NCBI GenBank assembly: GCA_043821025.1
Contig: JBDRDF010000032.1
Span: 11,261-75,260, forward strand
Reading direction: 5' to 3'
Length of the DNA: 64,000 nucleotides
Source: Candidatus Omnitrophota bacterium
GTDB taxonomy: Bacteria; Omnitrophota; Gorgyraeia; Pluralincolimonadales; CAZUZR01
The stretch's first letter is position 1, and every line of letters begins with the position of its first letter. The position numbers and the translations under genes were made by a program. The notes under the pieces are model-generated. The model did not search any database. It had not been told where the DNA came from and saw only the letters and a list, made by a program, of their open reading frames with translations. Positions 31,115 to 60,647 of the stretch are shown here, piece after piece.

Positions 31115-31840
31115 GTGGGTTTATTAGAGAAAAAAGAGGACATAAGAGAACTGGTAGATACTCTAAATTTTAAACAGAAAGTGGACAGGTCCTTAGCCCT
31201 GATAAAAGAGGCTTATGAGAAATACGGCGAAGGCCTGGTGGTAGCCAATAGTTTGGGCAAGGATTCGATGGCGGTTTGGGATTTAGCCAAAAAGGTTAGC
31301 CCTAATATACGGGGATTTATTGTTACGACGCGTTTTAAGCCTAAAGAGACTATTCAGTTTATGTATGAGACTGTCGCGCGTTACCCCGAGCTTAAAATTT
31401 ATAAAAGTGATGTAGAAATACCAGATAAACTTTATGAAACCGACCCAGATAGATGCTGCGATTTATTAAAAGTAGAGCCGACGCGTCGGGCGATTGAAGA
31501 AATGAAGGTAAAATGCTGGGTTACGGGCTTACGTTGCACTGAAGGAAGAACACGCACAGATTTTAAGGAAGTTGAGGAGCGCGACAAGGGCCTGATTAAA
31601 CTAAATCCTATTCTTATTTGGAAAGAAAGAGAGGTCTGGCAATATCTGGCTCTCAACGGTGTGAAAGTAAACCCCCTATATGCCCAAGGTTACAGGTCTT
31701 TGGGCTGTGCGCCCTGCACAAATATTACGAGTGAAGAAGATGAGCGTGCTGGGCGTTGGATTGGCACCAGCAAATGTGGCGGAGAATGCGGGATTCATAC
31801 CAGGCCTTTAAAAATAAATGTAGAAGGAGACGGGATTTGA
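31115..31840 (+). CDS. cysH: Assimilatory adenylyl-sulfate/phosphoadenylyl-sulfate reductase (CysH family; the Fe-S Cys pairs suggest the APS-reductase type)
   Basis: A GTG start is preceded by AAAGGAGAG. It has the PAPS-reductase fold, a CC...CxxC signature (DRCCDLLK, LGCAPC) and a C-terminal KCGGECGIH motif. Confidence 0.7.
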   Translation: MGLLEKKEDIRELVDTLNFKQKVDRSLALIKEAYEKYGEGLVVANSLGKDSMAVWDLAKKVSPNIRGFIVTTRFKPKETIQFMYETVARYPELKIYKSDVEIPDKLYETDPDRCCDLLKVEPTRRAIEEMKVKCWVTGLRCTEGRTRTDFKEVEERDKGLIKLNPILIWKEREVWQYLALNGVKVNPLYAQGYRSLGCAPCTNITSEEDERAGRWIGTSKCGGECGIHTRPLKINVEGDGI

Positions 31841-32808
31841 TTAAAAACATCTTCTTAATAATATTGGTGATCTTCTTTGCTTTTAATATGGGCGCAAGCG
31901 GCATTGCTCCTTCTTTTGCTTCCACTTACGGCGGAAAGTTAATAAAGAAGAAGAATGCCTTAATCCTGTTCGGGCTTTTTGTAATCTTAGGTGCTGTGTT
32001 TTTAGGAAGGAATGTAACTCTGACTCTGGGTAAAAATTTACTTGCCCAAGAATTAATAAGTTTTAATGTTGCTTTAATAATCTTAGGCTCAGCAGCCTTA
32101 GGTTTGTTTGTAGCTAATATTTTAAAGATTCCCCAGTCTACAAGCCAGGTTACTGTAGGCGCAATTGTGGGTGCAGGATTATATTTTCAGCATTTAAATC
32201 TTAAGACCTTATTTTTTAAGATACTTCCTATGTGGGTTATTTTGCCTTTATTATCTTATATTTTAACCCTATTGATTTATAAGACGATATATCCGCCGCA
32301 TCATAATAACCTGCATATTTACCAAAAAATATTTACCAATGAAAAGAAATTAAAGCTGTCAGCTTTAATAGTAAGTTGCTAGGTTGCTTTTGCTATCGGC
32401 ACAAACAATGTAGCAAATGCAGTGGGGCCTCTATCCGCAGCAGGGATTTTAGGGATAGGCTCAGGGCTCTTTTTAATTGCTCCTCTCTTTGGAGTAGGGG
32501 CTTGGGTTATGGGCAAAGGGCCCCTTGAGACCGCGGGAAAAGAAATAGTCCCCCTGGGATTGGTTTCCAGCGCTCTGGTTTCTTTTGTAACCGCGAGCTT
32601 ATTAATCTTTGCCTCAACTTTAGGTATCCCCCAATCATTGGTGCAGCTTAACCTCGCTTCCATATTTGCCATAAGTTCGGTAAAAAATGGCCATAAGTAT
32701 ACCTTAAACCAGCATATCACCAGAAAGACATTTTTTGTCTGGATAATTACGCCTTTGATTTCATTGGGTATATCGTATTTATTATTGTCTTTATTTTTAA
32801 GAATATAA
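31837..32808 (+). pseudogene. Second PiT-family (CysP-like) permease interrupted by an in-frame TAG (32380-32382); a pseudogene, split gene or sequencing error
   Basis: A TTG start overlaps the cysH stop (TTGA) and is preceded by GAAGGAGA. The first half ends ...LIVSC*. The same frame continues VAFAIGTNNVANAVGPLSAAG, which is the second PiT signature. No frameshift is involved. Confidence 0.45.
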
Positions 32809-32809: not shown

Positions 32810-33208
32810 ATGCTTATCTTAGAAAAAGATTTATTAGAAAAGATGTTGCAGCAAATTAAAGAAGAATTTCCTAATGAGGCATGCGGAATTCTGGCAGGCC
32901 GAGAGGGAAGGGTCGAAAAGGTTTACAAAATGAGCAATACAGATAAAAGCCCTTCTACGTATTTTATGGATGCAAAAGAGCAACTTTTGGTAATGAAACA
33001 GATACGTAATTTAGGACTGGATATGGTCGGCATATATCATTCGCACGTCGCCAGTACTGCATACCCCTCTCTACATGATGTGGAATTGGCTTTTTATCCT
33101 GAGGTTTCGTATGTTATTGTGTCGTATAAAGACAAAGATAATTCCACTGTTAAATCATTTAAAATAAAAGAAGGAAAGATAATGGAAGAAGAGATAAAAA
33201 TAGAATGA
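32810..33208 (+). CDS. JAMM/MPN+ metalloprotease (Mec+/CysO-cleaving type deubiquitinase-like)
   Basis: It has the JAMM motif E(ACGILAG)...HSHVASTAYPSLHD. It is 132 aa. Confidence 0.7.
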   Translation: MLILEKDLLEKMLQQIKEEFPNEACGILAGREGRVEKVYKMSNTDKSPSTYFMDAKEQLLVMKQIRNLGLDMVGIYHSHVASTAYPSLHDVELAFYPEVSYVIVSYKDKDNSTVKSFKIKEGKIMEEEIKIE

Positions 33209-34236
33209 GCCTTATACTAGTTGGCACAAATCACAAATTTAGTCCGATTGAAATGAGGGAGAAAATCGCCTTTTCTAAAAAGATGCTTAATAATGCCTTG
33301 GCTGAATTGACGAGCTTTAAGTGGATTAAAGCAGCGGTTATACTTTCTACCTGTAATAGAGTAGAGTTGTACGCAGATACGTCGGACATTTATATGGGAG
33401 TTAGAGCATTGAAAGATTTTCTGTCAAGTTATCATCGCTTGGAATTGAATAAGATAGAGCCATATCTTTATACATATATAGATAAAGAAGCAATCCTACA
33501 TTTATTTAGTGTATCTAGTGGGATCGATTCTCAAATTATAGGCGAACACCAAATTCTAGAGCAAGTAAGAGTTGCCTATAAACAAGCAAGGGCAGCTAAC
33601 CTTACAAATCCATTTTTAGATACGATATTTAAAGAAGCGGAAAGGATTTCCTTAAAAATAAGACAAGAGACCGAAATCTCAAAAGATAAGACCTCCATAG
33701 CGAGAATAGTAATGGAACTTATAAGAACAAAAAGTGATTTTATCAAGGTTAAAAAGATATTGATTATCGGTGTAGGTAAGATATCCGAGTTAGTAGTTAG
33801 GCATTTAAAAAAAGAAGAGATAGATGTAGTCTTTATCGCCAACAGAACTTATGAAAGAGCGTGCCAATTGGCGAGATGCATTAATGCGAAAGCGATAGGT
33901 TTTGATAGGCTTAAAGAGAAATTAAAGGAGGTTGATATAGTCATCAGCGCAACCTCCAGTCCGCATTTGATATTAAAAAAGGAAGATCTGGTGGACGTTA
34001 AAAAGCCATTGCTGATTATCGATTTGGCTGTGCCACGGGATGTGGAGTCGGAAGCAAGATATATGGAGGGTATCGACCTTTTTTGTTTAGATGACTTGAA
34101 TTTTATAATAGAAAAAAATTTAAATGGAAGAAGACAACAGATTCCCAATGCTTTAAGGATTATAGAAAAAGAGGTAGAAAATCTGTGCTTAACAGAATAT
34201 TTAGAGTTGGAACTCGAACCAGTCCGCTTGCCCTAA
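33205..34236 (+). CDS. hemA: Glutamyl-tRNA reductase (HemA), short form
   Basis: It has the LSTCNRVELY catalytic-Cys motif and an NADPH-binding segment (LIIGVGKISELVVRHL). It overlaps the JAMM gene by 4 nt. Confidence 0.7.
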   Translation: MSLILVGTNHKFSPIEMREKIAFSKKMLNNALAELTSFKWIKAAVILSTCNRVELYADTSDIYMGVRALKDFLSSYHRLELNKIEPYLYTYIDKEAILHLFSVSSGIDSQIIGEHQILEQVRVAYKQARAANLTNPFLDTIFKEAERISLKIRQETEISKDKTSIARIVMELIRTKSDFIKVKKILIIGVGKISELVVRHLKKEEIDVVFIANRTYERACQLARCINAKAIGFDRLKEKLKEVDIVISATSSPHLILKKEDLVDVKKPLLIIDLAVPRDVESEARYMEGIDLFCLDDLNFIIEKNLNGRRQQIPNALRIIEKEVENLCLTEYLELELEPVRLP

Positions 34237-35243
34237 AGCAAGTCAATGAGGTCGTAACTTCTTTAAAGAGATTCTATCCAGAGTTCCAATTTGAGATAGT
34301 AGGCATAGATACATATGGCGATAAGGATAAGATTACTCCTATATCAGAAGTAGAAGGCAGCGATTTCTTTACCAAAGAGATAGATGAAGCCCTTTTAAAA
34401 GGGGAGATCGATTTCGCTATCCACAGCGCTAAGGATTTGCCTGATAATTTAGCGCCCGGCTCTTTTATCGCCGCTATTACTAAGTCCGTTGACCCATCTG
34501 ATGTGTTGATAGCAAGGGATAATTTGAAAATTGACGAACTCAAAACTGGGGCCAAGATAGGGACAAGTAGCCTAAGGCGCAAGGCCCAACTTAAAAACTA
34601 TCGTAAGGACCTTCAGATTATAGATATTCGGGGAAATGTTGAAGAAAGGTTGAAGTTACTAGATGAGACCGACTTAGATGGTATCGTCGTTGCTGCTGCG
34701 GGGCTTATTCGGTTGGGCTTAGAAGACCGTATAACCCAAAGGATTCCTTTTGATATTTTAAGACCTCACCCATTACAGGGCTCTTTGGCAATAGCAGTTC
34801 GTCAGGCTGACGAGGAAATAATATCTTTAATGGAGAAGATCGATTCCCGAAGGAAGATAATATTTATCTGTGTAGAAAACGCCTCTCGCAGCCAGATAGC
34901 CGAAGGATTCCTAAGACATTTTGGTTGGCAAAGATTCGTAGCCAGAAGCGGCGGAATTAAACCAGCGGATAAAATCGACCCATTAGCTATCGAAGTAATG
35001 AAGGAAGTGGAAATAGATATTTCCAAACAGAAGCCAAAACTAATTTCTAAAGATTTATTATCCGAGCAGTTGGTCACAGTTATTAGTATGGGTTGTTTAG
35101 AAAGCTGTCCTGCAATTAAGATCGATCAAAATTGGCAGATTGAAGACCCTAAAGGTAAGTCCATAGAAAGATTTCGCCGGGTTAGAGATATGATAAAAGA
35201 AAAAATAAAGAAGCTTACAGAAAAAGGATGCCATGGTTCATAA
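34185..35243 (+). CDS. Porphobilinogen-deaminase-like (HemC domains 1-2) fused to a LMW-PTP/ArsC-like domain; the HemC cofactor domain 3 appears absent
   Basis: The N-terminal 215 aa align to HemC (RVGTRTSPLALKQ...GTSSLRRKAQL...GNVEERLKLLD...AAAGLIRLGL). The C-terminus has a CX5R P-loop (IIFICVENASRSQIAEGF) and an MGCLESCP motif, in place of the dipyrromethane-binding domain. Confidence 0.5.
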   Translation: MLNRIFRVGTRTSPLALKQVNEVVTSLKRFYPEFQFEIVGIDTYGDKDKITPISEVEGSDFFTKEIDEALLKGEIDFAIHSAKDLPDNLAPGSFIAAITKSVDPSDVLIARDNLKIDELKTGAKIGTSSLRRKAQLKNYRKDLQIIDIRGNVEERLKLLDETDLDGIVVAAAGLIRLGLEDRITQRIPFDILRPHPLQGSLAIAVRQADEEIISLMEKIDSRRKIIFICVENASRSQIAEGFLRHFGWQRFVARSGGIKPADKIDPLAIEVMKEVEIDISKQKPKLISKDLLSEQLVTVISMGCLESCPAIKIDQNWQIEDPKGKSIERFRRVRDMIKEKIKKLTEKGCHGS

Positions 35244-35493
35244 ATTTCGTTGCCCAGGAAATATCTCTTTGAACTTAAAGGCAGAAATTCTTAGATGTCC
35301 AAAATGTGGCTACGAAGTAGAGATATTTTCTGATGAGCTTAGAAGAGTATGCCCCAAATGTACTACTGAAGTATATCGCAAGAGACTACCTTCCTGTATT
35401 GACTGGTGTCCTGCAGCAAGAGAATGTATTGGTGATAAAAAATGGAAGGAGTTAAAGATAGGGGGTAGAAATGAAAAAGAGAAAAATTATTAA
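35233..35493 (+). CDS. Small Cys-rich zinc-ribbon protein (hypothetical)
   Basis: It has CPKCGYEV...CPKCTTEV plus CIDWCPAAREC. It overlaps its neighbours. Confidence 0.3.
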   Translation: MVHKFRCPGNISLNLKAEILRCPKCGYEVEIFSDELRRVCPKCTTEVYRKRLPSCIDWCPAARECIGDKKWKELKIGGRNEKEKNY

Positions 35494-36265
35494 AATCGAT
35501 GAAGAAAAATGTAATGGTTGCGGAAATTGTATACCTGCTTGCCCAGAACAGGCCATACAGATCGTAGAGACTCCAAAAGGCAAAAAGGCAAGGCTGGTGA
35601 AAGAGTTTTACTGTGATGGGTTAGGCGCCTGCCTTGGAAGCTGTCCAGTAGGGGCGTTGACCATCAAAGAAAGAGAGGTTTTGCCCTACGATGAGGAGGC
35701 AACGATTGCCCATATAAAAGAAGTTGCTCCTGAGATGCTGAAAACACATTTAGAACACCTTAGAGACCATGCTCAAGAACTTCCCAGACATCATTCACAT
35801 AAGATGCCCAAGGGAATGACTGCTTGTCCTTCGGCTCAAATAATACACTGGGGAAGGGAAGAAGAAAAACCCATCACCCAGAAGGAAGTTAGCACTTCCT
35901 CCGAGCTTCGTCAATGGCCAATACAATTGCATCTTGTGAACCCAGATGCCCCTTATTTTAAAAATGCAGATTTAATCATTGTAGCTGACTGCGTTCCATT
36001 TGCCTATGCCGATTTTCATCAACATTTTTTAAGGAATAAAGCTGTAGCTATCGGTTGTCCAAAGTTAGATGACGTTGATGCCTATATTGAAAAATTGACC
36101 CAGATATTTAAGACCGCTAATCCCAGAAGCATAAAAGTTATTCATATGGAGGTACCTTGTTGCTTTGGTTTGCGCCATATAGTTGAGGAAGCGATAAAAT
36201 TGTCAGGCAAGAAGATACCACTGGAAAATGTTATTGTGGGGATAAAAGGCGAAATTAAAATATGA
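35471..36265 (+). CDS. 4Fe-4S dicluster ferredoxin-domain protein with a C-terminal domain of unknown function
   Basis: It has CNGCGNCIPACP and CDGLGACLGSCP, with additional Cys residues at the C-terminus (VPCCFGL). Confidence 0.45.
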   Translation: MKKRKIIKIDEEKCNGCGNCIPACPEQAIQIVETPKGKKARLVKEFYCDGLGACLGSCPVGALTIKEREVLPYDEEATIAHIKEVAPEMLKTHLEHLRDHAQELPRHHSHKMPKGMTACPSAQIIHWGREEEKPITQKEVSTSSELRQWPIQLHLVNPDAPYFKNADLIIVADCVPFAYADFHQHFLRNKAVAIGCPKLDDVDAYIEKLTQIFKTANPRSIKVIHMEVPCCFGLRHIVEEAIKLSGKKIPLENVIVGIKGEIKI

Positions 36266-37665
36266 ATAAAGTTAAGGTTTATTTAGTTGGAGCAGGCCCG
36301 GGAGGAAATGATCTAATAACTGTAAGGGGATTAAATACCTTAAGAGAGGCGGATGTGGTTATTTATGATTATCTTGTAGATAGAAAACTCTTACAGGAAG
36401 CAAAGGAAGGCGCAGAGTTAATCTGTTGCGATAAATTGAGAAAAAATAGATATTCAGACGGTTTTCTGATTCATCAAGAAAAGATAAATAAGCTTTTGGT
36501 TAAGAAGGCAAGGGAAGGCAAAAAGGTAGTCCGACTTAAAAATGGGGATCCTGTAATTTTTGGCAGGTTATCACAAGAGTTGGAAGCGCTCCTTAAAAAC
36601 AGAATAGAATTTGAGGTTATCCCAGGGGTGACAGCGGCAAGCGTTGCCGCTGGCTTAAGCGGCATTCCCTTGACTGACCGAAGATTCGCTTCTAGTTGTG
36701 TTTTTGTTACAGGGCACGAAGATCCAAGTAAAAGAACCAGTCTTTTAGATTGGAATAGCATAAGCAAGGTCGGCACAATAGTTTTGTATATGGCGGTTGA
36801 GAATGTTAACAAGATAGTTAAAAAGCTCATTAATGCTGGCAAGAACGAAGACGCCCCTGTAGCTATAGTTAAAGATGCCGGGCTACTTACCCAGAAGGTT
36901 TTGACAGGCACCTTAGGAAATATCGTTACAAGGGCTAAGGAACAAAATATAAAACCTCCAGCAATTATTATTATTGGCGAAGTGGTAAAATTAGAAAAAG
37001 AGTTTAACTGGCTTAAGAAGAATAAAAGGATACTTTTTACAGGGATATCGCCACAGAGATTTTTTGAGAAAGGAACTATTTTTCATCAACCACTTATTAA
37101 AATGGAGCCGCTCAATGATTACAAAGAATTTGATAAGGAGATTAGAAGCATCGATGGTTACGACTGGATAATCTTTTCAAGTCGATATGGCGTCCAATAT
37201 TTCTTTCAAAGGTTATATAAGATAGGTTATGACACAAGACGACTGAGTGAAGTGAAAATTGCAGCCATCGGTAATTCCACTCGAAACTGGCTTTTGGATT
37301 TCGGTGTTATTGCAGACGTCGTTCCGAAAGAGGAGTCTTCAAAAGGGCTGATAAATGAATTCAAGAAGATAGACATTAGAAATAGAAGGATATTTTTACC
37401 ACGCTCAGATATTTCTGATAAAGGACTTGCACAAGGGCTTTCATCATTAGGGGCCAAGGTTACTTCTTGTGTGGCTTATAAGAACGTAATGCCTGATAAC
37501 CTACCGGACTTAGACTTAAGATTTTTTGATGAGGTTATGTTTACCAGTCCCTCAGGTGTACGCAACTTTGTAAAAAGATATGGAACTCTGCCTAAAAGCG
37601 TTAAAGTAAGATGTATTGGAGACGTTACTTTTAAGGAAGCAAGAAGATGGCATTTATTAGGTTAA
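36262..37665 (+). CDS. cobA-hemD: Uroporphyrinogen-III C-methyltransferase (CobA/SUMT) fused to uroporphyrinogen-III synthase (HemD)
   Basis: The SUMT N-terminus reads VYLVGAGPGGNDLITVRGLNTLREADVVIYD. The C-terminal roughly 220 aa are HemD-like. Confidence 0.7.
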   Translation: MNKVKVYLVGAGPGGNDLITVRGLNTLREADVVIYDYLVDRKLLQEAKEGAELICCDKLRKNRYSDGFLIHQEKINKLLVKKAREGKKVVRLKNGDPVIFGRLSQELEALLKNRIEFEVIPGVTAASVAAGLSGIPLTDRRFASSCVFVTGHEDPSKRTSLLDWNSISKVGTIVLYMAVENVNKIVKKLINAGKNEDAPVAIVKDAGLLTQKVLTGTLGNIVTRAKEQNIKPPAIIIIGEVVKLEKEFNWLKKNKRILFTGISPQRFFEKGTIFHQPLIKMEPLNDYKEFDKEIRSIDGYDWIIFSSRYGVQYFFQRLYKIGYDTRRLSEVKIAAIGNSTRNWLLDFGVIADVVPKEESSKGLINEFKKIDIRNRRIFLPRSDISDKGLAQGLSSLGAKVTSCVAYKNVMPDNLPDLDLRFFDEVMFTSPSGVRNFVKRYGTLPKSVKVRCIGDVTFKEARRWHLLG

Positions 37666-38618
37666 AACGTTTAAGGAGGAATAACCAGATAAGGGAATTG
37701 TTCAGCCAAACTCAACTTCTGGCGAAAGATTTGATTATGCCTTATTTTGTAATGGAGGGTAGTAAAAAGAAAGTGCCCATTAAATCTATGCCTGGAATTT
37801 ACCGCTTATCCGTTGATAATTTAATTAAGGATATAAAGGAGGCCAAAAGTTTAGGTATAAAGGCAATCCTTCTTTTTGGGATATGTCGCAAGAAGGATGA
37901 AATTGGTTCAGAAGCTTATTCTTCAGATAGTATCGTTCAAAGAGCGATAAAAGCGGTAAAGAAAAATATAGAGGATATGGTTATCGTTACGGACGTTTGT
38001 TTATGTGGGTATACTTCCCACGGCCATTGCGGGGTTGTAAAGAACTCTTGTATAGATAATGATGAGACGTTGAAAGTTTTGTCTAAGATCGCTTTGTCTC
38101 ATGCTGAAGCTGGAGCGGATTTCGTGGCTCCATCTGCGATGATGGATGGACAGGTAAGAACCATAAGAGAAACTTTAGATAGAAACGGCTTTTCCGATAC
38201 AGGGATATTGGCTTATTCAGCTAAATATGCCTCAAGCTTCTATGTGCCCTTTAGAGAAGCCTTGGGCTCCGCTCCACAATTTGGAGATAGAAAGACATAC
38301 CAGATGGACTATAGAAATTCTGATGAGGCATTGAGAGAGATAGAACAGGATATCGAAGAGGGTGCGGATATAATTATGGCTAAACCAGCATTAGCATATT
38401 TAGATATTATCTCCAAAGCAAAACAAAATTTCAACATACCCATCGCTGCTTATAATGTCAGCGGAGAATATTCTTTAGTTAAGTTAGGAGCCAAAGCAGG
38501 CATAATAAATGAGCAAGAAATAACCTTAGAAATTTTAACTGCCATAAAAAGGGCAGGGGCAGATTTGATTATAACCTATCATGCAAAGGAAGTGGCTGGA
38601 TGGTTGAGGAATAAATAA
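37647..38618 (+). CDS. hemB: Porphobilinogen synthase (delta-aminolevulinate dehydratase, HemB)
   Basis: It has the zinc-site VTDVCLCGYTSHGHCG and an active-site Lys region. Confidence 0.8.
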   Translation: MAFIRLKRLRRNNQIRELFSQTQLLAKDLIMPYFVMEGSKKKVPIKSMPGIYRLSVDNLIKDIKEAKSLGIKAILLFGICRKKDEIGSEAYSSDSIVQRAIKAVKKNIEDMVIVTDVCLCGYTSHGHCGVVKNSCIDNDETLKVLSKIALSHAEAGADFVAPSAMMDGQVRTIRETLDRNGFSDTGILAYSAKYASSFYVPFREALGSAPQFGDRKTYQMDYRNSDEALREIEQDIEEGADIIMAKPALAYLDIISKAKQNFNIPIAAYNVSGEYSLVKLGAKAGIINEQEITLEILTAIKRAGADLIITYHAKEVAGWLRNK

Positions 38619-38619
38619 T

Positions 38620-39519
38620 ATGTTTCTGGTAGAAATCGGATATCAGATACTAAAAGAATTCTTTTCGCTAACATTCAAGGTTATTCCTTACTTTATGTTA
38701 GGAATTGCCTTTGGTGCGCTTCTGGAAGCGTATTTTAAACCAGAGTTCGTCTTTAGATACTTAAAGAAAGGAATTTCCTCGGTGGTTAATGCAAGTATTT
38801 TAGGAGCTGCTCTGCCGGGTTGCGCTTGTGTTACTATGCCAATGGCAGAGGGTTTAAAGAGAAAAGGCTCAAGATTAGGGACATTATCAGCGTTTATTAT
38901 GGTTTCACCACTTTTGAGTCCTCATACAGTTGTATTGACTTATGCGATGCTGGGTTGGAAATTTACTTTTGCCAGAATTATTTTCTCATTTTCAGGTGCG
39001 ATCCTTTTAGGAATTTTATTCAATTATTTTGAAAAGCGGCACGTAAAAGGTTTTGCTTTACCTGCTGAATCTGGGACCGAATGTAAATCTTGTCCTGACT
39101 TCGAGCAGGGCAAGAAATTAAGTTTTTTAAAAAGTTTTATCCTTATTGCCAAGAGCCTCGGTAAATATTTTTTCCTGGGCATGTTTATTGCCAGTCTCTT
39201 GACCGTTCTTATTCCTGAAGAGGCTATACCAAAATATATTGGCTCATCCGGCATATTCGCTTATCTGGCTGCAGCATTGGTAGGGATTCCGGTATATATT
39301 TGTGAAGGAGAAGAGATACCTATTACCTTAGCCCTATTAAAACTTGGTTTAGGCAAAGGTCCTTCTTTTACCTTTCTTTTAGGTTCGATAGGAACATGTA
39401 TTCCCACTATGCTTATGGCACAAAAGATAATTGGTAAGCGGCCAGTCATTTTTTATATTATTGGATGGTTTGTGTTTGCAATCAGTTCAGGGCTATTATT
39501 TAGTCTATTTTTCCATTAA
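38620..39519 (+). CDS. Putative permease (DUF318/YraQ-like) with a GCAC motif
   Basis: It has about 8 TM helices and an LPGCACVTMP motif. Confidence 0.4.
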   Translation: MFLVEIGYQILKEFFSLTFKVIPYFMLGIAFGALLEAYFKPEFVFRYLKKGISSVVNASILGAALPGCACVTMPMAEGLKRKGSRLGTLSAFIMVSPLLSPHTVVLTYAMLGWKFTFARIIFSFSGAILLGILFNYFEKRHVKGFALPAESGTECKSCPDFEQGKKLSFLKSFILIAKSLGKYFFLGMFIASLLTVLIPEEAIPKYIGSSGIFAYLAAALVGIPVYICEGEEIPITLALLKLGLGKGPSFTFLLGSIGTCIPTMLMAQKIIGKRPVIFYIIGWFVFAISSGLLFSLFFH

Positions 39520-39544
39520 AAAGATTGTAAATAGCGGTGTGTAA

Positions 39545-40798
39545 ATGAAAGTAATCTATTCTGGTAATCTTTTCCATGAAGCACAGAAGTATATCCCGGG
39601 TGGAGTAAATAGTCCTGTCCGGTCTTTCAGGGCTGTAGGTGGGTATCCAATATTTGTAAATCATGGGAAGGGTTCAAAGGTTTATAATGAATGTGGCAGG
39701 GAATTTATTGATTATTGCCAAAGTTTCGGTGCATTAATTTTAGGCCACGCTCACCCAAAAGTTGTACGAGAGTTAAGAAAGGTAGTTAACAAAGGTACCA
39801 CTTTTGGAACTCCAACAAAATTAGAGACAGAGTTAGCTAAAATTATCATCGAAGACGTTCCTTCGATACAAAAGATTAGGTTTACTAACTCAGGCACAGA
39901 GGCGGTAATGGGCGCGATCAGACTTGCCAGGGCTTATACAAAAAGAGATAAGATTATAAAATTCGAGGGCTCGTACCATGGTCATGCGGATTATTTATTG
40001 GATTGCGAAGGGGTTCCGAGGGATTTTACAAGGCACACATTAATTACCCCTTATAATAATATAAAGGTAGTTAAAGATTTAATAGAGAAGCATGAAGAGG
40101 ATGTAGCCGCAATAATCGTTGAGCCGATAGCAGCAAATATGGGGGTAGTTTTACCAAAAGATGATTTTCTAAGCGAGTTAAGAAAAATTGCTAGTAAATA
40201 TAATATAATTTTAATTTTCGATGAAGTTATTACTGGTTTTAGACTGATTTTTGGAGGCGCTCAGAAAATATTTGATATTAAACCGGATTTGACGTGTCTA
40301 GGAAAAATAATCGGCGGGGGATTACCGATAGGCGCTTTTGGAGGCAGAAGAGAAATTATGCAACTTTTGGCACCTGAAGGACCTGTCTATCAAGCAGGGA
40401 CTTTCTCAGGCAACCCTGTTTCTATGAGCGCAGGCATAAGTACGTTGAGGATTTTGCACGAATGTAATCCATATAGGAAGGTGGAAGGAATGACTAAATA
40501 TCTTTGTGGGAAAATTAAAGAGTACGCGAATAAACATAAGATCGGGATAGGAATAAATTCTTTTGGTTCCATGTTTAGTATTTTCTTTACAAATAAACAG
40601 ATAACGGATTATAGTATAGCTAAAGCCCAAGATACATCTTTGTTTAAAAAATTCTATCACGGTTTATTAAAAAACGGTGTTTATTTTTCGCCCTCAGGTC
40701 TTGAAGCAGATTTTATTTCGTTAGCACACACGCAAGAAGATATGCAGAAGACCTTACGGGCAGTTGATAAAACATTTAGAAATTTGAGGAGGAGTTAA
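39545..40798 (+). CDS. hemL: Glutamate-1-semialdehyde 2,1-aminomutase (HemL)
   Basis: It has the [18 protein letters not shown] signature. It is a class III aminotransferase. Confidence 0.8.
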
Positions 40799-40799: not shown

Positions 40800-41939
40800 A
40801 TGGGCATAACCATTTATTTAAACGGCAAAAAAGAAACGGTCGAAGAAAATTTAAACATTTCGAAGCTCCTTGAGGTCAAGAAGATTAGGCCGGAAGTTGT
40901 AACGGTGGAATTAAATGGGCAGATTATCGAAAAGCCAAAATACGCAGATGCGTTTATAAAAGATAAAGATAAAGTCGAAGTCGTATATTACATGGGAGGC
41001 GGTATGCCTTTTAGCGACAGAATTGCAGAAAACGTTTTGGAACTAATCGGTCGAACGCCGATCGTTAGGCTAAATAAAATCATAGAATCAGATATGGCGG
41101 AGATATTAGCCAAACTAGAGCAATTTAACCCAGGAGGAAGCGTAAAGGATAGGATTTGTATCTCCATGTTCGAAGACGCAGAAAAGAAAGGCTTACTTAA
41201 AAAGGGCTCGACCATTATTGAGCCGACAAGCGGGAATACGGGAATTGGTTTAGCTATGGTTGCCGCAGTTAAGGATTATAGATGTATCCTTACTATGCCA
41301 GAAACGATGAGTTTAGAAAGAATATATATCCTTAAATCTTATGGCGCAGAGGTTGTGCTTACCCCAGGTGTCGAAGGCATGCAAGGAGCGATTAAAAAAG
41401 CAGAAGAATTGCTAAAAAAGACACCTAATAGTTTTATGCCCCAGCAGTTTAAAAATCCTGCAAATCCTCAAATTCACCGTTTAACTACTGCTAAAGAGAT
41501 ATTGGAAGCAACCAATGGAAACCTAGATGCCTTTGTTGCTGGTGTAGGAACTGGTGGTACAATTACAGGGGTAGGGGAGGTTTTAAAAAAACATAATGCC
41601 TCGATTAAGGTAATTGCAGTTGAGCCCAAAAAGAGCGCTGTTTTATCTGGAGGACAGGTTGGCCCACATAAAATCCAAGGCATCGGTGCCGGTTTTGTTC
41701 CAGAAGTTTTAAATCGTTCGATCATAGATCAAATAATCCAGGTTGATGACGACGATGCCTTTAGGACTTCAAGGAGGCTTGCAAAAGAGGAGGGTCTGTT
41801 TGTAGGTATTTCAGCAGGGGCTGCAGCTTGGGCAGCATTAAACGTCGCTAAGGATTCAGGCAAGGGCAAGAGGGTAGTCGTAGTTTTGCCAGATACGGGT
41901 GAAAGATATTTTTCTATGCATCAATATTTTGAGGCATAA
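40800..41939 (+). CDS. ThiS/MoaD-like sulfur-carrier domain (ending GGG) fused in-frame to cysteine synthase (CysK/CysM family); an internal SD+ATG at 41004 could also give free CysK
   Basis: The N-terminal 68 aa ([26 protein letters not shown]...[33 protein letters not shown]) fit the ThiS pattern. The cysteine synthase part follows ([24 protein letters not shown]). GGGAGG at 40994-40999 precedes ATG 41004. Confidence 0.65.
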
Positions 41940-41957: not shown

Positions 41958-42852
41958 GATGAAAACAAAAGATGCAAAAATAACCTTAGATTTGGACGAG
42001 TTTAGGAAGGGCGGAATTTTAAAACAAAGGCAGAAAAACTATTTTATCCTTCGAACTCGCATACCCGGTGGATATCTAAGGGCCGATATGTTGTCAAAAT
42101 TTATTCGAATCGCCAAAAAATATGGCAGAGGATATGTTCATCTCTCAACGAGGCAGGCTATAGAAATCGCCTGGATTAAAATAGAAAAAATAGATAACCT
42201 CATAAAGGACCTTAAAAGAGTGGGTATCTTAAGAGGTGCTTGCGGTCCGCGTTCTCGCAACATAGTGGCGTGTCCTGGCTCAACCGTTTGCAGGTACGGT
42301 TTTGCGGATACAGAAAAATTGGCTGCCAAATTCGATAAGTACTTTTTTGGCAAAGATGTTCCAAAGAAATTTAAGATAGGACTGACGGGTTGTCTTAATT
42401 CTTGTGCTAAACCCCAGGAAAACGATATTGGGTTTTTGGCTGTTGGTGAGCCCGAATGCGATTTAGACAAATGCACTGGTTGTATGCTATGTGCCAAGGT
42501 TTGTGAGAAGGTTTGCGCTCGAGGCAAAAGGGAACCTGCGATCGTCATGGATGAGAATAAGGAACCTGTATATAGAAGGGAGTTTTGCTTCTTTGAGGGT
42601 GATTGTGTAAGGATATGCCCAGTTAATGCCTGGAAAATAAAACGAGTAGGATATACGGTATTTTTAGGAGGGAGGGTCGGCCGTTTCCCTACGTTTGGGT
42701 TTAAAATAAAGGAATTTGCTACCGAACAAGAAATTTTTAAAATAACCAAAAGAGCAATAGCCTGTTATAACAGAATTGCCGAAAAAGGCGAGCGCTTCGG
42801 AGAAACTATAGAAAGGATAGGAATAGAAGGGGTAAAAAAACAGGTGCTATGA
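41958..42852 (+). CDS. Small siroheme-[4Fe-4S] sulfite reductase (AsrC/DsrA-like, with an inserted ferredoxin domain)
   Basis: The siroheme-FeS Cys motif is Cx5C...Cx3C (ACGPRSRNIVACPGSTVC, GCLNSCAKP). The ferredoxin insert reads CTGCMLCAKVCEKVC...CVRICP. Confidence 0.6.
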
Positions 42853-43091
42853 CAAAAATAAAAGTCGATCTAGTTTTAGATTTGAAAAATACACCTTGCC
42901 CAATAAATTTTGTTAAGACAAAACTAAAGCTCGAACAAATGAATAAAGGGGAGGTTTTAGAAGTCCTTTTAGATGACGGTGATCCCATCACTAATGTTAC
43001 CGTAAGCGTAAAAGAAGATGGGCATCAGATTTTGAAGGTCGAGAAAATAAATGACCATTGGAAATTGGTCGTTAAAAAAGTTGGAGAATAA
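42849..43091 (+). CDS. TusA-like sulfurtransferase / sulfur carrier (SirA/YedF/YeeD family)
   Basis: It is 80 aa. It has LDLKNTPCPINFVKTKL (CPxP-type motif). Confidence 0.55.
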   Translation: MTKIKVDLVLDLKNTPCPINFVKTKLKLEQMNKGEVLEVLLDDGDPITNVTVSVKEDGHQILKVEKINDHWKLVVKKVGE

Positions 43092-43096: not shown

Positions 43097-43909
43097 ATGC
43101 GATTAAGGGAAGATCAAATTGAGAGGTATTCAAGGCAAATTATTCTACCTAATGTTGGTGGGAAAGGTCAGGAGAAGCTTTTGAGTGCCAAAGTTTTAAT
43201 CATTGGCGCAGGAGGCTTGGGTTCTCCTTGTGCTTTATATTTGGCCGCGGCAGGCATAGGGAAAATTAGCATAGTAGACTCAGACGAAGTCGAGCTTAAT
43301 AATTTACAGAGACAAATCTTGCATTCAACCAAGGATGTAGGTAGGTCGAAAACAGAATCAGCAAAAGACAGGCTCAATGCCATTAATCCAGATTTAGAGG
43401 TCATAACTTATAAAATCAGGCTCAAGTCGGAGAATATCTTAGATATCATAAAGGATTATGATATAATTGTTGATGGCTCAGATAACTTTCCTACAAGGTA
43501 TTTAGTCAATGATGCCTGTGTTCTTTCGAAAAAGCCTTTATCTCATGGGGGCATATTTAGATACGATGGGCAGGCGATTACAATTCTTCCAGGTGAAAGT
43601 GCTTGTTATAGATGCCTATTTCCTACTCCCCCTCCGCCTGGACTTGTGCCAAGTTGCCAGGAAGCCGGGATTTTAGGCGTAGTTGCCGGAGTCATTGGCA
43701 CTATTCAGGCAAACGAAGTTTTAAAATATATATTAGGAATCGGAGACCTTTTAGCCGGAAAGCTGTTGGTATTTAACGCCTTAGATTCAAGCTTTAGACA
43801 AGTGAAGGTTCCAAAAGATCCTAAATGTCCAGTTTGTGGAGAAAATCCCACGATAACAAAATTAATAGATTATGAACAGTTCTGTAGCTTACAAATAAGG
43901 AAGGTGTAA
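43097..43909 (+). CDS. ThiF/MoeB/MoeZ-type E1-like adenylyltransferase (no rhodanese domain)
   Basis: It has the nucleotide loop VLIIGAGGLGSPCALYLAAAGIGKISIVDSD. The zinc motif is CYRC...CPVC. Confidence 0.7.
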   Translation: MRLREDQIERYSRQIILPNVGGKGQEKLLSAKVLIIGAGGLGSPCALYLAAAGIGKISIVDSDEVELNNLQRQILHSTKDVGRSKTESAKDRLNAINPDLEVITYKIRLKSENILDIIKDYDIIVDGSDNFPTRYLVNDACVLSKKPLSHGGIFRYDGQAITILPGESACYRCLFPTPPPPGLVPSCQEAGILGVVAGVIGTIQANEVLKYILGIGDLLAGKLLVFNALDSSFRQVKVPKDPKCPVCGENPTITKLIDYEQFCSLQIRKV

Positions 43910-43911: not shown

Positions 43912-45147
43912 TTGAGCTACGTAAGAGGCTTAAAATGTAGGGAATGCGGAAGGGAATATCCGAAAGAAGCGCTCTTCGTTTGCGAATATTGCTTCGGCTC
44001 TTTGGAGGTGGACTACGACTACTCTGCGATAAAGAAGAAACTGACACGCGAGGTAATTGCATCTCGTTCGAAAGATCTGTGGAGATACCAAGAGCTGTTG
44101 CCGCTCGATTCAAAGCCGCAGGATGGTTTATATTCGGGTTTCACGCCGCTTATAAGGTCAACGAATTTGGCGAAGGTATTGAAAGTAGACGAACTTTACA
44201 TAAAAGATGATTCCGTCTGCCATCCGACGCTTTCATTTAAGGATAGGGTTGTATCGGTTGCAATTTCAAAGGCAAAGGAGTTTGATTTCTCTGTTGTTGC
44301 ATGTGCTTCAACCGGAAATTTGGCGAATTCGGTCTCCGCATTAGGCGCTATCGCCAGATTAAAGCGTTATATATTTATCCCTGCCGATTTGGAATTGGGA
44401 AAGGTAGTCGGCTCTTTAATTTACTCCCCGAATTTAGTTGCAGTCGAAGGAAATTACGACGAGGTGAACCGACTCTGCGCCGAAATTGCGTCGAGATATA
44501 GATGGGCATTCGTCAATATAAATATCAGGCCATATTATGCTGAGGGTTCAAAGACCTACGGATACGAGATTGTAGAACAATTGGGTTGGAGGACGCCAAA
44601 ACATATCATAGTTCCGGTTGCGGGCGGTTCCTTAATCTCAAAGATTTGGAAAAGCTTTAAAGAATTTCAAAAATTAGAGTTGATCAACAAGATTGATACA
44701 AAAGTTTATGCGGCGCAACCAACAGGATGTTCGCCAGTCGTAACAGCGATAAAGGAAAATTCCGATATAATCAAACCTGTTAAGCCGAAGACGATAGCGA
44801 AATCACTCGCCATAGGAAATCCGGCGGACGGATATTATGCGGTCCAGACCGTAAAGGATTCAGGCGGATGGGCAGAAGATGTAACCGATGAGGAAGTAAT
44901 CGAAGGGATAAAATTGCTTGCCGAGACCGAAGGAATATTTACCGAAACTGCAGGAGGAGTTACAGTAGCAGTTGCAAAGAAATTAATCGAACAAGGTCGA
45001 ATCCCTCGGGATGAATCCATTGTAATTTCAATTACGGGCAATGGCTTAAAAACGCAGGAGGCAGTCCAGGAACATATAGGAAGGGCCGTTAAGATAAAAC
45101 CTACCCTTGCATCTTTTGAAGAACAGGTAATGGTGAAAGGGAAATAA
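43912..45147 (+). CDS. Threonine-synthase-like fold-type II PLP enzyme with an N-terminal zinc ribbon (candidate sulfur-carrier-dependent homocysteine or cysteine synthase)
   Basis: A TTG start is preceded by AAGGAAGGTG. It has CRECG...CEYC and the PLP-lysine motif HPTLSFKDRVVS. The overall sequence is ThrC-like. Confidence 0.55.
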   Translation: MSYVRGLKCRECGREYPKEALFVCEYCFGSLEVDYDYSAIKKKLTREVIASRSKDLWRYQELLPLDSKPQDGLYSGFTPLIRSTNLAKVLKVDELYIKDDSVCHPTLSFKDRVVSVAISKAKEFDFSVVACASTGNLANSVSALGAIARLKRYIFIPADLELGKVVGSLIYSPNLVAVEGNYDEVNRLCAEIASRYRWAFVNINIRPYYAEGSKTYGYEIVEQLGWRTPKHIIVPVAGGSLISKIWKSFKEFQKLELINKIDTKVYAAQPTGCSPVVTAIKENSDIIKPVKPKTIAKSLAIGNPADGYYAVQTVKDSGGWAEDVTDEEVIEGIKLLAETEGIFTETAGGVTVAVAKKLIEQGRIPRDESIVISITGNGLKTQEAVQEHIGRAVKIKPTLASFEEQVMVKGK

Positions 45148-45165
45148 AAATAAAGGAGCGTGCAT

Positions 45166-45441
45166 ATGGCGATTAAAGTAAGAATACCACAACCACTACA
45201 AGGTTTGACGAACCACCAACCTGAGGTTGAAGCTACCGGAACGACCGTGAAAGAATTAATTGATGATTTAGAGCACAAATACCCCGGCATCAAAGACAGA
45301 ATCTGCGATGAATCAGGCAAAGTGCGAAGGTTCGTTAATTTCTATGTCAACGAAGAAGACATAAGGTTTTTGGAGCGGGAACAAACGAAGTTGAAAGACG
45401 GCGATGAAGTTTCAATAATTCCGGCAATCGCCGGGGGATGA
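45166..45441 (+). CDS. CysO/MoaD/ThiS-like ubiquitin-fold sulfur carrier protein with a free C-terminal GG
   Basis: It is 91 aa and ends ...VSIIPAIAGG*. SD sequence AGGAG lies 8 nt upstream of the ATG. Confidence 0.6.
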   Translation: MAIKVRIPQPLQGLTNHQPEVEATGTTVKELIDDLEHKYPGIKDRICDESGKVRRFVNFYVNEEDIRFLEREQTKLKDGDEVSIIPAIAGG

Positions 45442-46193
45442 AAATGATGGAAGTAGAGCTCACCGCAAAAGACAGAGAAAGATATAACAGACAGATGTTT
45501 ATCGAGGACTGGGGCGAAGCGGGACAGAAAAAGCTAAAGAATGCCGAGGTTTTTATCTCAGGCGTAGGCGGTTTAGGAAGCCCCGTCGCTATATATCTTG
45601 CAGTCGCAGGGGTAGGCAAGATAAGGGTATGCGATTTTGATGTACCAGAACTTTCTAATCTAAATAGGCAGATATTGCACCACGATGCTCGCATAGGCCT
45701 TAATAAAGCACTTTCTGCAAAAAAGACGTTAGAAGTTTTAAATCCTACGGTGGAAATTAAAGAATTCCCTGAAAGGATAGAAGCTGATAATGTCGATAAA
45801 TTAGTTGGCACAAGTCAGATAATCATCGATTGTATGGATAATTTTGATACGCGTTTAATCCTAAATGAATGCGCCATACGAAAAAAGATACCTTTGGTAT
45901 TTGCGAGTGTTTGGGGCTTGACCGGTTATTTAAGTTTTTTTCATGTGCCTGAAACTCCCTGTCTTGCATGTATATTTAGAGAACCACCCCCTAGAGAGAA
46001 ATTTCCTGTAGTAGGAGCGACCCCTGGGGTAATCGGTTGCTTGGAGGCGCTCGAAGTATTAAAGTATATTACCGGCATTGGTCAGAATTTAAAAAATAAA
46101 CTTTTAATTTGGGACGGGACTACTGTGGATTTTAGAAAAGTCTCCATTAAATATGATAAAGATTGTCCCGTATGCGGCACTTTACACCGTTAA
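45438..46193 (+). CDS. Second ThiF/MoeB-type E1-like adenylyltransferase
   Basis: It has VFISGVGGLGSPVAIYLAVAGVGKIRVCDFD. The zinc motif is CLAC...CPVC. It overlaps the carrier gene by 4 nt. Confidence 0.7.
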   Translation: MKMMEVELTAKDRERYNRQMFIEDWGEAGQKKLKNAEVFISGVGGLGSPVAIYLAVAGVGKIRVCDFDVPELSNLNRQILHHDARIGLNKALSAKKTLEVLNPTVEIKEFPERIEADNVDKLVGTSQIIIDCMDNFDTRLILNECAIRKKIPLVFASVWGLTGYLSFFHVPETPCLACIFREPPPREKFPVVGATPGVIGCLEALEVLKYITGIGQNLKNKLLIWDGTTVDFRKVSIKYDKDCPVCGTLHR

Positions 46194-46208
46194 AGAGGAG
46201 GTAAAGAT

Positions 46209-46449
46209 AATGGCAAAGAAGATGGTGCATTTAATATTCCCCCAAAAGTTGATTAAGAAGGCAGTCATTTATACTATGGCAAAAAAATTTGACGTTATCC
46301 CCAATATCCGCCGCGCGAAGATTACCGAATCGGTTGGGGAGGTTGTATTAGAACTTGAGGCATCGAAGGATAATTTAGAGAAGGGTATAGCATATTTAAG
46401 GAAGTTGGGTGTTAAAGTAGAGCCTATTGTCGGGGATATCGTAGAGTAA
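46209..46449 (+). CDS. Small ACT/NIL-like domain protein (hypothetical)
   Basis: It is 80 aa (MAKKMVHLIFPQKLIKKAVIYTMAKKFDVIPNIRRAKITE...). SD sequence GAGGAGG is present. Confidence 0.3.
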
Positions 46450-59913: not shown

Positions 59914-60647
59914 TGAATTACCAAATAAGAGGAAAGGGAAGGAATCTCTTTTTCATTCACGGTTGGGGATGCGATTCTCGAGTTTGGGCAAAACTGGTAG
60001 AATCGCTATCGAAAAAATTCTGTGTAATAACGATAGACTTAAGGGGATATGGCAAGTCGGAATGGAGAAGCGAGAATGATTTGCTCGATGCTTTTGCGAC
60101 TGATATTTTGATGCTTTGCAAGGAATTGAATTTAAAGGAGATAAATTTTATAGGTTGGTCTTTAGGTTGCTATGTAATTTTTGAGCTACTTGGGAACGCG
60201 CCTGAAATTATAAACTCAATTGTTTTAGTCGGTGGCACCCCAAAATTTTTAAAGGGCGATGGATTTGAGTTCGGATTCGAAGGGTCAAATTTAAGGCTTA
60301 TGAGGCGTAGGTTAAATCGGGACTTCAATGGTGCGCTTTTAGATTTTTGTCGTTCGATATTTTTTGAAAACAACGAAGGACCGCAACCAAATAAAGATGC
60401 GTTGATTTCGAGCTTAAATATATTGGAGCACGCCGATTTCCGGCAAGATATAAAACGGATTGATACGCCAACGCTGATTGTCTGTGGCGAAGGCGATTCG
60501 ATAACTCCAAAAGCTGCATCCGAATACTTGCACAAGGAGATTAAAGGTTCAAAATTGGTAATCATAAAGGATGCCGGCCATGTTCCCTTTTTGACCCGCC
60601 CAAAAGAATTCAATCGGATTTTAGAAAAATGGATAAACGGAAGATAA
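59901..60647 (+). CDS. bioH: Pimeloyl-ACP methyl ester esterase (alpha/beta hydrolase)
   Basis: It has the GWSLGC nucleophile elbow. The N-terminus is colinear with E. coli BioH (LFFIHGWGCDSRVW...DLRGYGKS). Confidence 0.7.
   Translation: MDNIMNYQIRGKGRNLFFIHGWGCDSRVWAKLVESLSKKFCVITIDLRGYGKSEWRSENDLLDAFATDILMLCKELNLKEINFIGWSLGCYVIFELLGNAPEIINSIVLVGGTPKFLKGDGFEFGFEGSNLRLMRRRLNRDFNGALLDFCRSIFFENNEGPQPNKDALISSLNILEHADFRQDIKRIDTPTLIVCGEGDSITPKAASEYLHKEIKGSKLVIIKDAGHVPFLTRPKEFNRILEKWINGR

Follow-up and report, generated by a model that had tools for sequence, protein, structure and literature searches.

An in-frame fusion of a ThiS-type sulfur carrier to cysteine synthase in a sulfur-assimilation operon of Candidatus Omnitrophota, probably a precursor for a JAMM peptidase

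Sulfur carriers of the ThiS/MoaD family are adenylated and thiocarboxylated only on a free glycine carboxylate. Two pathways that rely on such protein thiocarboxylates are of particular interest here: the HcyS/HcyD/HcyF/MetY pathway of Wolinella succinogenes, reportedly described by Krishnamoorthy and Begley in 2011, and the CysO/CysM/Mec+ cysteine pathway of Mycobacterium tuberculosis, reportedly described by Burns and colleagues in 2005. The former is said to be the biochemically characterised case of the operons known as subtype 4e. In this subtype, proposed by Iyer, Burroughs and Aravind in 2006 (PMC1779556), a ThiS/MoaD protein and a JAB peptidase are found with an E1 enzyme that always lacks a rhodanese domain, always with SirA, and with sulfite or 3′-phosphoadenosine 5′-phosphosulfate (PAPS) reductase. 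The CysO/CysM/Mec+ pathway is mentioned in PMC3227635, and a MetM/MetO/Mec/MoeZ pathway for homocysteine (Hasebe et al. 2024) is summarised in 10.1101/2024.10.14.618325. Carriers made as part of a longer protein have also been described. For instance, MoaX of M. tuberculosis requires a cut between Gly82 and Ser83 and shows no activity in its uncleaved form (PMC4326299), DRJAMM cleaves DR2607, a natural MoaD-MoaE fusion of Deinococcus radiodurans, and HvJAMM1 and the JAMM1 of Pyrococcus furiosus cleave linear fusions regardless of what follows the carrier (PMC8832034). Here we describe thiS-cysK, a gene of Candidatus Omnitrophota in which a ThiS-type carrier runs without interruption into the cysteine synthase CysK, and which lies at 40800..41939 in the 64,000-nucleotide stretch of DNA that was analysed (the window; contig JBDRDF010000032.1). 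The gene is a real and conserved carrier-enzyme fusion, located in a sulfur-assimilation operon together with a gene for a JAMM peptidase. We estimate a probability of roughly 60% that its product is a precursor that is cut by this JAB-family peptidase after the carrier's GGG, and that the freed carrier, once thiocarboxylated, serves to make cysteine; both the cleavage and the use of the thiocarboxylate by CysK are steps that we infer.

The thiS-cysK gene consists of one open reading frame (ORF) of 379 residues with no stop within it, and a strong Shine-Dalgarno (SD) sequence precedes its start at 40800 (duplex ΔG −11.5). Its parts are the following.

40800..41939, + strand: thiS-cysK fusion gene, 379 residues, predicted precursor of 41.1 kDa, both domains above curated cut-offs
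40800..41003, + strand: ThiS-family beta-grasp sulfur-carrier domain, residues 1-68, 7.7 kDa, with YYMGGG at its C-terminal end
40995..41003, + strand: codons of Gly66-Gly67-Gly68, the C-terminal motif of the carrier, invariant in homologues; presumed cleavage site after G68
40994..41006, + strand: internal SD-like GGGAGG (40994-40999), a 4-nucleotide spacer and ATG 41004 (Met69, the apparent ancestral cysK start), read from the sequence
41004..41936, + strand: CysK domain of the O-acetylserine sulfhydrylase A type, residues 69-379, 33.5 kDa

An earlier note on this DNA had proposed that a 68-residue domain of ThiS/MoaD type continues in frame into a CysK with an SVKDR motif, and profile searches bear this out for both halves of the protein. 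The N-terminal domain matches PF02597 with 41.6 bits as an isolated stretch of 68 residues and with 37.4 bits within the whole protein (cut-off 22.5), and TIGR01683 (thiS) with 66.0 and 61.9 bits, respectively (cut-off 37.45). The latter model is covered from end to end (positions 1-64 of 64), with G68 as the final model residue. The best match of the domain in the PDB is 2k5p/3cwi (49.9 bits), a protein that contains FLYFMGGG and was deposited as thiamine-biosynthesis protein ThiS, followed by 1tyg_B. An AlphaFold2 model of the fusion (predicted template modelling score, pTM, 0.69) has two folded domains; residues 1-60 have predicted local distance difference test (pLDDT) values of 82-94 and an alternation of strands and helices compatible with a beta-grasp. 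At the junction, residues 65-70 fall below 50 and are predicted to be flexible or disordered.

The remainder of the protein is a typical CysK, with 468.1 bits for TIGR01139 (cysK; cut-off 350.95) and 258.8 bits for PF00291. The cysM models, which represent CysM of the E. coli type, are matched below their cut-offs (304.6 against 394.2 bits for TIGR01138, and 287.4 against 413 for NF008735). K116, the PLP (pyridoxal phosphate)-binding lysine, lies in SVKDR (residues 114-118), and this motif as well as TSGNTG (143-148) and GVGTGGT (248-254) is invariant in alignments of 38-44 homologues. The best PDB chains for this domain, led by 2egu and 2q3b, are annotated as cysteine synthase or cysteine synthase A, and no chain annotated as CysM occurs among the 60 best matches. 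The domain begins with MPFSDRIA directly after the carrier, without a linker, and the stand-alone cysK genes of loci L005 and L006 begin in the same way. In the primary product, the GGG of the carrier is internal, with 311 residues after it, and does not provide the free C-terminal Gly-Gly of a ThiS carrier.

A search for orthologous fusions shows how general this arrangement is among close relatives. All 120 of the best 90%-identity clusters, which are 76-100% identical to the window protein and come from NCBI, JGI, ENA and Logan assemblies that include many independent metagenomes, combine PF02597 with PF00291, and their lengths are 377-385 residues, except for one of 419. We also gathered 161 loci from species-representative genomes and metagenomes, 23 of which, in addition to the window, carry this thiS in one of three arrangements.

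Fused in frame: 11 loci, the window and one locus truncated by a contig end; CysK follows GGG directly or via a short linker
thiS adjacent to a separate cysK: 8 loci; thiS tails of 2-21 residues
thiS elsewhere than cysK: 3 loci; thiS tails of 0-2 residues

Given that some relatives have separate genes (L002, L003, L007 and L015), one could suspect that a missed stop or a frameshift joined two genes in the assembly, and for L003 the contig coverage is only 2.9x. An artefact of assembly or sequencing is nevertheless so improbable as to be negligible, as more than 120 independent protein clusters share this in-frame junction, as do 11 other loci at the DNA level that were obtained in different studies with different assemblers, and a protein identical to that of the window has been deposited at NCBI for a Candidatus Omnitrophota metagenome-assembled genome (MAG; P0001) under the name "cysteine synthase A".

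The junction, with the codons ATG GGA GGC GGT / ATG, combines strict conservation on one side with free variation on the other. The GGG is invariant in the 120 homologous proteins and in all 23 loci with DNA, while the residue after it is Met in around 57 of the 120, Ser in around 35, Leu in around 16 and others in the remainder, and some fused homologues have a linker of around 5 to 40 residues between GGG and CysK. This pattern is the one predicted by proteolytic trimming after GGG. The unfused relatives point in the same direction. In the 8 loci where thiS and cysK are adjacent, thiS extends beyond GGG by residues that are not conserved, for example SL, YAF, TSWLNW or GSTQLPSAVSLTVVESKER, and the tail is often translated through a hairpin-forming spacer ahead of the SD and ATG of cysK itself. 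Tails past GGG are also present in 12 of the 12 stand-alone thiS orthologues examined, which are 50%-identity representatives. In contrast, the MoaD-type carrier encoded further downstream in the window ends with AGG followed directly by a stop. Thus, a stop immediately after GGG appears to be dispensable for this thiS, as expected if a peptidase trims whatever comes next.

As a side observation on these spacers, strong hairpins lie between thiS and cysK at L007 3005-3065, L096 1089-1149, L093 1216-1290 and L089 9996-10075 (for example, TTCGACTC...GAGTCGAA), and they may be small palindromic insertions or regulatory stems.

Considering the need for a free glycine, the variable sequence past GGG, the nearby JAMM gene, the precedents of JAMM peptidases acting on linear fusions and the low pLDDT of residues 65-70, we think that a precursor processed by the JAB peptidase is the most likely explanation. 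In this scheme, the JAB/JAMM peptidase of the operon (32810-33208) would first cut after Gly68, giving a 7.7-kDa carrier ending in GGG-COOH and a 33.5-kDa CysK. The carrier would then be adenylated by an E1 enzyme of ThiF/MoeB type without rhodanese, and would become a thiocarboxylate with sulfide that the neighbouring sulfite reductase makes and TusA perhaps relays. CysK would condense this thiocarboxylate with the PLP-aminoacrylate formed from O-acetylserine. An S-to-N acyl shift would follow, and hydrolysis of carrier-GGG-Cys, again by the JAB peptidase, would release cysteine. The fusion would ensure that carrier and enzyme are synthesised in a 1:1 ratio, and it would have originated by the loss of a stop codon between two translationally coupled genes.

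Another way to explain the fusion is that it is never cleaved, so that the ThiS-like domain is a permanent docking or regulatory module of CysK which binds the E1 enzyme, the sulfite reductase or another partner. There is some basis for this idea, since Iyer et al. 2006 (PMC1779556) found ThiF proteins with a fused N-terminal ubiquitin-like domain that co-occur with a separate ThiS, which suggests a role other than that of a carrier. For thiS-cysK, however, we regard it as quite improbable, as GGG is invariant while the residues of the would-be interdomain linker vary, the match to the thiS model is complete and takes in the terminal glycines, disorder is predicted at the junction and the same carrier is encoded by a free-standing gene in sister lineages.

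The other way of obtaining a free CysK would be internal initiation. The earlier note had pointed to a GGGAGG at 40994-40999 and an ATG at 41004 within the junction codons, and both are present. The predicted duplex between this SD and the anti-SD has a ΔG of −10.2 kcal/mol, whereas 31 real starts have a median of −5.3; of 226 internal ATGs that are in frame, a single one is equally strong. Its layout, GGGAGGCGGTATG, also recurs at the ribosome-binding site of L006, where cysK stands alone (GGGAGGCAAGATG). These features, together with the fact that in L003 the two genes are separated by one extra base relative to the window, are what one would expect from a two-product gene in which CysK is made from ATG 41004 and the full-length chain arises by read-through of a recently lost stop, as a minor product or one without function. 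Against this, the presence of the fusion in 120 of 120 clusters shows that it is old and conserved, and hence no recent accident; in about half of the homologues GGG is followed by Ser, Leu or another residue that is not Met, and several of these have no start codon near the junction, so that this route to CysK is closed to them; and without cleavage the gene would yield no free carrier in these genomes. We therefore consider a two-product gene of this kind highly improbable.

A GGAGG-like motif also precedes Ser junction codons and is thus largely a by-product of the glycine codons. The first glycine codon of the junction is GGA in around 60% of the loci, compared with a GGA usage of 29% in the operon (the loci being few and related), but this bias is alike at Met junctions, at Ser junctions and in unfused genes where the SD of cysK is distant. 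Since only about one homologue in two has Met after GGG, and GGAGG is also found before Ser, internal initiation cannot be the general mode of expression of these genes. The internal start that the earlier note had proposed is as strong as real starts in this genome but is not a conserved element. To judge from its sequence, it is most plausibly a ribosome-binding site that has survived from a formerly separate cysK, and part of the CysK in this genome may also be made from it in free form.

The surroundings of the fusion are those of a sulfur-assimilation operon. The cluster begins with an Rrf2 regulator, a reductase for PAPS or adenosine 5′-phosphosulfate (APS), a PiT/PHO4 permease, the JAB peptidase and a hem block, followed by thiS-cysK, a small sulfite reductase and TusA, and it continues downstream with a ThrC-like enzyme, a MoaD-type carrier, ThiF and a NIL-domain protein. 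A similar order is found in more than 15 loci, one of them on a 530-kb contig. The genes most relevant here are listed below.

31115..31840, + strand: CysH-type (P)APS reductase (NF002537, 173.9 bits, cut-off 154), conserved at the head of the cluster
32810..33208, + strand: JAB/JAMM (MPN+) metallopeptidase (PF14464, 80.7 bits), candidate processing and product-releasing enzyme
33205..40798, + strand: inserted block with hemA, hemC, cobA/hemD, hemB, hemL and three other ORFs, identified by synteny and by the Pfam families of the L081 orthologues
41959..42852, + strand: small siroheme/[4Fe-4S] sulfite reductase with a ferredoxin insert (NIR_SIR 102.6 bits, NIR_SIR_ferr 68.1 bits)
42849..43091, + strand: TusA/SirA-type sulfurtransferase (PF01206, 74.6 bits), kept beside the sulfite reductase in relatives
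43097..43909, + strand: ThiF/MoeB-type E1 adenylyltransferase of 270 residues without a rhodanese domain (PF00899, 294 bits)
43912-45147, + strand: threonine-synthase-like PLP enzyme with an N-terminal Zn-ribbon (thrC TIGR00260, 285.7 bits)
45160-45441, + strand: MoaD-type carrier ending in AGG-stop (TIGR01687, 55.2 bits; PF02597, 71.4 bits)
45438..46193, + strand: second ThiF/MoeB-type E1, 251 residues (PF00899, 239.8 bits)

That a JAMM/MPN+ protein is encoded in the same cluster, as had been noted before, holds: the gene at 32810..33208 belongs to the Prok-JAB family, its NEACG...HSHx7Sx2D motif is intact, and the PDB chains that match its product best are 2kks (102.5 bits) and 5lda, which is annotated as JAMM1, with HSHx7Sx2D in register. 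Besides the window, all 10 related loci in which the upstream region is covered have this gene. In the window, the hem block separates it from thiS-cysK, while in L003, L010 and L015, which lack this block, it directly abuts thiS. The block itself probably supplies tetrapyrrole precursor steps for siroheme, and the sulfite reductase lies immediately downstream of the fusion both in the window and in most related loci that reach far enough. Both E1 proteins match the ThiF domain only. Of the longer MoeB/MoeZ models, the protein of 270 residues aligns with just the E1 part, and scores for NF005902, the MoeZ model, stay below the cut-off. Among the scanned larger ORFs of the 64-kb window, we found none for thiG, thiH, thiC, thiE, cysE or ATP sulfurylase, and the cluster contains no Cys_Met_Meta_PP enzyme, its PLP partners being CysK and the ThrC-like protein.

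Some other features of the cluster deserve mention. The cluster of the window has two E1 genes, while relatives have one, which is orthologous to the first (43097..43909; 69-87% identical) but occupies the position of the second. The set formed by the ThrC-like, MoaD, ThiF and NIL-domain genes (43912-46449, + strand) is conserved in relatives. The permease gene (31756-32808, + strand) is split by an in-frame TAG at 32380-32382 where the L081 orthologue, one base different, has Tyr (SC*VAF in the window versus SCYNAF); this could be a pseudogene, a sequencing error or a case of read-through. In addition, the hemC ORF (34185-35243, + strand) has 352 residues as compared with 245 in its L081 orthologue, and CVENASRS, a CX5R-type motif noticed by eye, lies within its last ~130 residues, so that it may represent HemC fused to a domain resembling low-molecular-weight phosphatases or ArsC.

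This set of genes fits the sulfate-assimilation operons of the ThiS/MoaD-JAB-E1-SirA type (subtype 4e), to judge from gene content, and it does so better than it fits the CysO/CysM/Mec+ system. All of the components of subtype 4e are present in the window and its relatives, except for MetY as the PLP partner. As with HcyS, the ThiS-like carrier is made with an extension past Gly-Gly for JAB to remove, the E1 enzyme lacks rhodanese, the cluster includes genes for sulfite reductase, PAPS/APS reductase and SirA/TusA, and a single peptidase would carry out both the trimming of the precursor and the release of the product. The two systems differ in that the extension of HcyS is a single Ala, whereas that of the window carrier is the whole partner enzyme, and in that the PLP enzyme of the HcyS pathway is the O-acetylhomoserine sulfhydrylase MetY, which makes homocysteine, whereas that of the window is CysK. 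Homocysteine, in the window, would apparently be handled by a separate pair, namely the ThrC-like enzyme and its MoaD-type carrier.

The earlier note had instead seen the logic of the CysO/CysM/Mec+ pathway in this locus, and part of the likeness does stand, given that the genes for carrier, enzyme and JAMM peptidase are clustered and that the same sequence of events is proposed, in which a carrier thiocarboxylate and a PLP-dependent sulfhydrylase form a carrier-Cys adduct that a JAMM peptidase hydrolyses. The components themselves are different, however. CysO is of MoaD type and ends in GG-stop, whereas the window carrier is of ThiS type and forms one polypeptide with its enzyme; mycobacterial CysM is specific for O-phosphoserine, whereas the window enzyme passes the cysK model and fails the cysM model; and the mycobacterial E1, MoeZ, carries a rhodanese domain, whereas the E1 proteins of the window have none and a TusA gene is found instead. 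In these respects, the HcyS pathway and subtype 4e are closer. The neighbouring ThrC-like/MoaD pair (43912..45441), which is conserved in relatives, would be assigned, from its gene content, to the MetM/MetO route, in which a homologue of threonine synthase works with a carrier of the ThiS/MoaD family, an E1 and a Mec-type JAMM peptidase. The likeness extends to the ThrC-like, MoaD and ThiF genes (43912-46193) and concerns the neighbours of the fusion rather than the fusion itself. The ThrC-like gene is probably misannotated as threonine synthase.

An important question is whether the released carrier really feeds CysK, and several points weigh against our proposal in this regard. The CysK domain is ordinary by every score. 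CysK proteins that are 75-85% identical occur without an adjacent thiS in L005, L006, L088, L091 and L092, and those of L088 and L092 sit in an otherwise identical Sir-TusA-ThrC-MoaD-ThiF cluster, which argues that CysK of this clade probably uses free sulfide and that the carrier is not essential to it. The presence of JAB is not specific to the cleavage of a precursor either, as the release of cysteine or homocysteine from carrier adducts already explains it, and the carrier, which passes the thiS equivalog model, may serve thiamine synthesis. In an alternative reading, the fusion is cleaved but the carrier supplies another acceptor, such as the thiazole of thiamine or the ThrC-like homocysteine enzyme, or is just a protected buffer of sulfide, while CysK uses free sulfide from the adjacent sulfite reductase and the fusion reflects nothing other than operon adjacency and co-expression. 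Apart from the thiS model score, the standard CysK and its relatives without an adjacent thiS, this reading draws on the annotation as ThiS of the nearest solved relatives of the carrier, and on L008 and L090, where thiS is placed with ThiF and JAB, apart from cysK. We nevertheless consider it unlikely, since thiS is fused or directly adjacent to cysK in 20 of the 23 loci with this thiS, and since a second carrier, of MoaD type, stands beside the ThrC-like enzyme, so that each PLP enzyme has a carrier as its neighbour. Moreover, the window ORFs that were scanned include none of the thiamine genes thiG, thiH, thiC and thiE, and JAB genes lie outside thiamine operons according to Iyer et al. 2006 (PMC1779556).

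The proposal of a JAB-processed precursor also gains from a comparison with fusions of other kinds. As in MoaX and DR2607, the carrier is N-terminal to its own partner enzyme and the Gly-Gly motif lies exactly at the junction. Those proteins depend on cleavage after Gly for their function, with a JAMM peptidase as the cleaving enzyme in Deinococcus, and by analogy the window fusion would too. MoaX and DR2607 belong to the molybdopterin synthase pathway, though, and their partner has a different fold. A further parallel is found in eukaryotes: fusions of ubiquitin to ribosomal proteins are linear precursors processed by deubiquitinases. Here too, a beta-grasp modifier is made as a linear fusion and released at its Gly-Gly end by a peptidase that recognises the modifier, whatever follows. 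Ubiquitin is nevertheless a protein modifier and not a sulfur carrier, whereas the partner in the window is the carrier's own metabolic enzyme.

A second family of carrier-PLP enzyme fusions was found in Armatimonadota. These proteins (P0186 and P0271-P0345), which are annotated as cystathionine beta-synthase (CBS), are 548-582 residues long and consist of a MoaD-type carrier (ending in AMAGG), a linker of around 40 residues, and PALP and CBS domains. Two of the genes are located as follows.

L162, 8001-9701: Armatimonadota MoaD-PALP-CBS fusion gene
L163, 5379-7079: Armatimonadota MoaD-PALP-CBS fusion gene

The operon also has genes for a Cys_Met_Meta_PP enzyme, a second PALP enzyme, a Prok-JAB peptidase and an Rrf2 regulator. 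Thus, as in the window, the carrier is N-terminal to a PLP enzyme of the CysK/CBS family in what is an independent fusion, and Prok-JAB and Rrf2 genes are in the operon; unlike in the window, the carrier is of MoaD type, there is a C-terminal CBS part as well as the linker, and the operon has neither sulfite reductase nor TusA. That two independent carrier-PLP enzyme fusions, in Omnitrophota and in Armatimonadota, each lie near a JAB gene strengthens the interpretation of the window fusion as a precursor. A more general version, in which bacteria of at least these two phyla make their carriers as linear pro-proteins with their own PLP partner, and one JAMM peptidase serves for maturation of the precursor as well as for recycling of the carrier at each turnover, is possible, but we hold it to be rather doubtful at present.

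As for its distribution, the fusion seems to belong to a narrow lineage. When 1.84 billion 50%-identity representatives were searched with the first 140 residues, which span the junction, the fusion was found in only a handful of clusters (P0121-P0126, P0128 and P0135, the last with a long linker), from which we conclude that the architecture is restricted, essentially to Omnitrophota and MAGs labelled Planctomycetia. Candidate fusions in Paenibacillus, Cohnella, Dehalococcoidia and L127, suggested by tblastn, were rejected as non-coding read-through or unrelated N-terminal extensions. Separately, we observed that CysK of Dehalococcoidia, Chloroflexi and related MAGs has a conserved N-terminal extension of ~20-30 residues ending in (K/R)YKxIEIPKLTRG, unrelated to ThiS, in loci L047, L048, L049, L050, L054, L060, L070, L133 and L156. 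We also came across P0142, a single representative of 129 residues in which a ThiS ending in GGG runs into a TusA domain that lacks its N-terminal part and consists of its last 53 residues; this joining may be a deletion or an assembly artefact.

Within the lineage, fused genes, adjacent genes and CysK alone are interspersed on a tree of the CysK domain, which is a neighbour-joining tree without bootstrap. For example, the fused L010 is a neighbour of the unfused L015, the fused L087 is a neighbour of the unfused L007 and L096, and L088 (CysK alone) and L089 (adjacent genes) fall inside a fused group. At the nucleotide level, the junctions of fused and unfused states differ by single bases or short indels. 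Where the window has GGT directly followed by ATGCCTTTTAGC, L003 has GGA T ATGCCTTTTAGC, and this one extra base splits the genes, while in L015 the two genes overlap (GGT TCT CTATGA). As read from the tree, the fusion and fission of thiS and cysK is a repeated event in evolution.

The fusion extends a known strategy, that of the HcyS and CysO pathways and of the MoaX and DR2607 precursors, and is not a new kind of system. Its architecture is already visible in precomputed Pfam annotations, although in the literature that we searched, whose coverage excludes most subscription journals, we found no description of a fusion of ThiS or CysO with cysteine synthase. Nevertheless, if the precursor model is true, cysteine synthesis in a widespread uncultured phylum would proceed via a protein-bound thiocarboxylate made 1:1 with its enzyme, and homocysteine synthesis would do likewise through the neighbouring ThrC-like/MoaD pair. 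Thiocarboxylate-dependent cysteine synthesis would no longer be confined to the specialised CysM of mycobacteria but would include the common CysK type, and, coming after MoaD-MoaE, these proteins would be the third class of natural carrier fusions cleaved by JAMM peptidases. If the doubtful pro-protein reading for the two phyla were also to hold, such fusions would correspond, in metabolism, to ubiquitin-fusion precursors and might be antecedent to them, an ordinary CysK-type enzyme would be able to take sulfur from a protein thiocarboxylate, and a dispensable stop after GG(G) would be a general genomic signature of JAMM-processed carriers. If, on the other hand, CysK simply uses free sulfide, the fusion would be a minor curiosity of operon evolution. 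In practical terms, the fusions are currently annotated as "cysteine synthase A" only, and the carrier is consequently missed in pathway reconstructions. A tail after GGG could be used to flag JAB-dependent carriers in genomes.

Elsewhere in the window, a biotin cluster (57774-63549, + strand) encodes a BioB-like radical-SAM/BATS protein, a BioF-like aminotransferase, an alpha/beta hydrolase and a protein of 705 residues; the last combines an AAA_26 domain, which is BioD-like, with an Aminotran_3 domain, which is BioA-like, and is thus an apparent BioD-BioA fusion.

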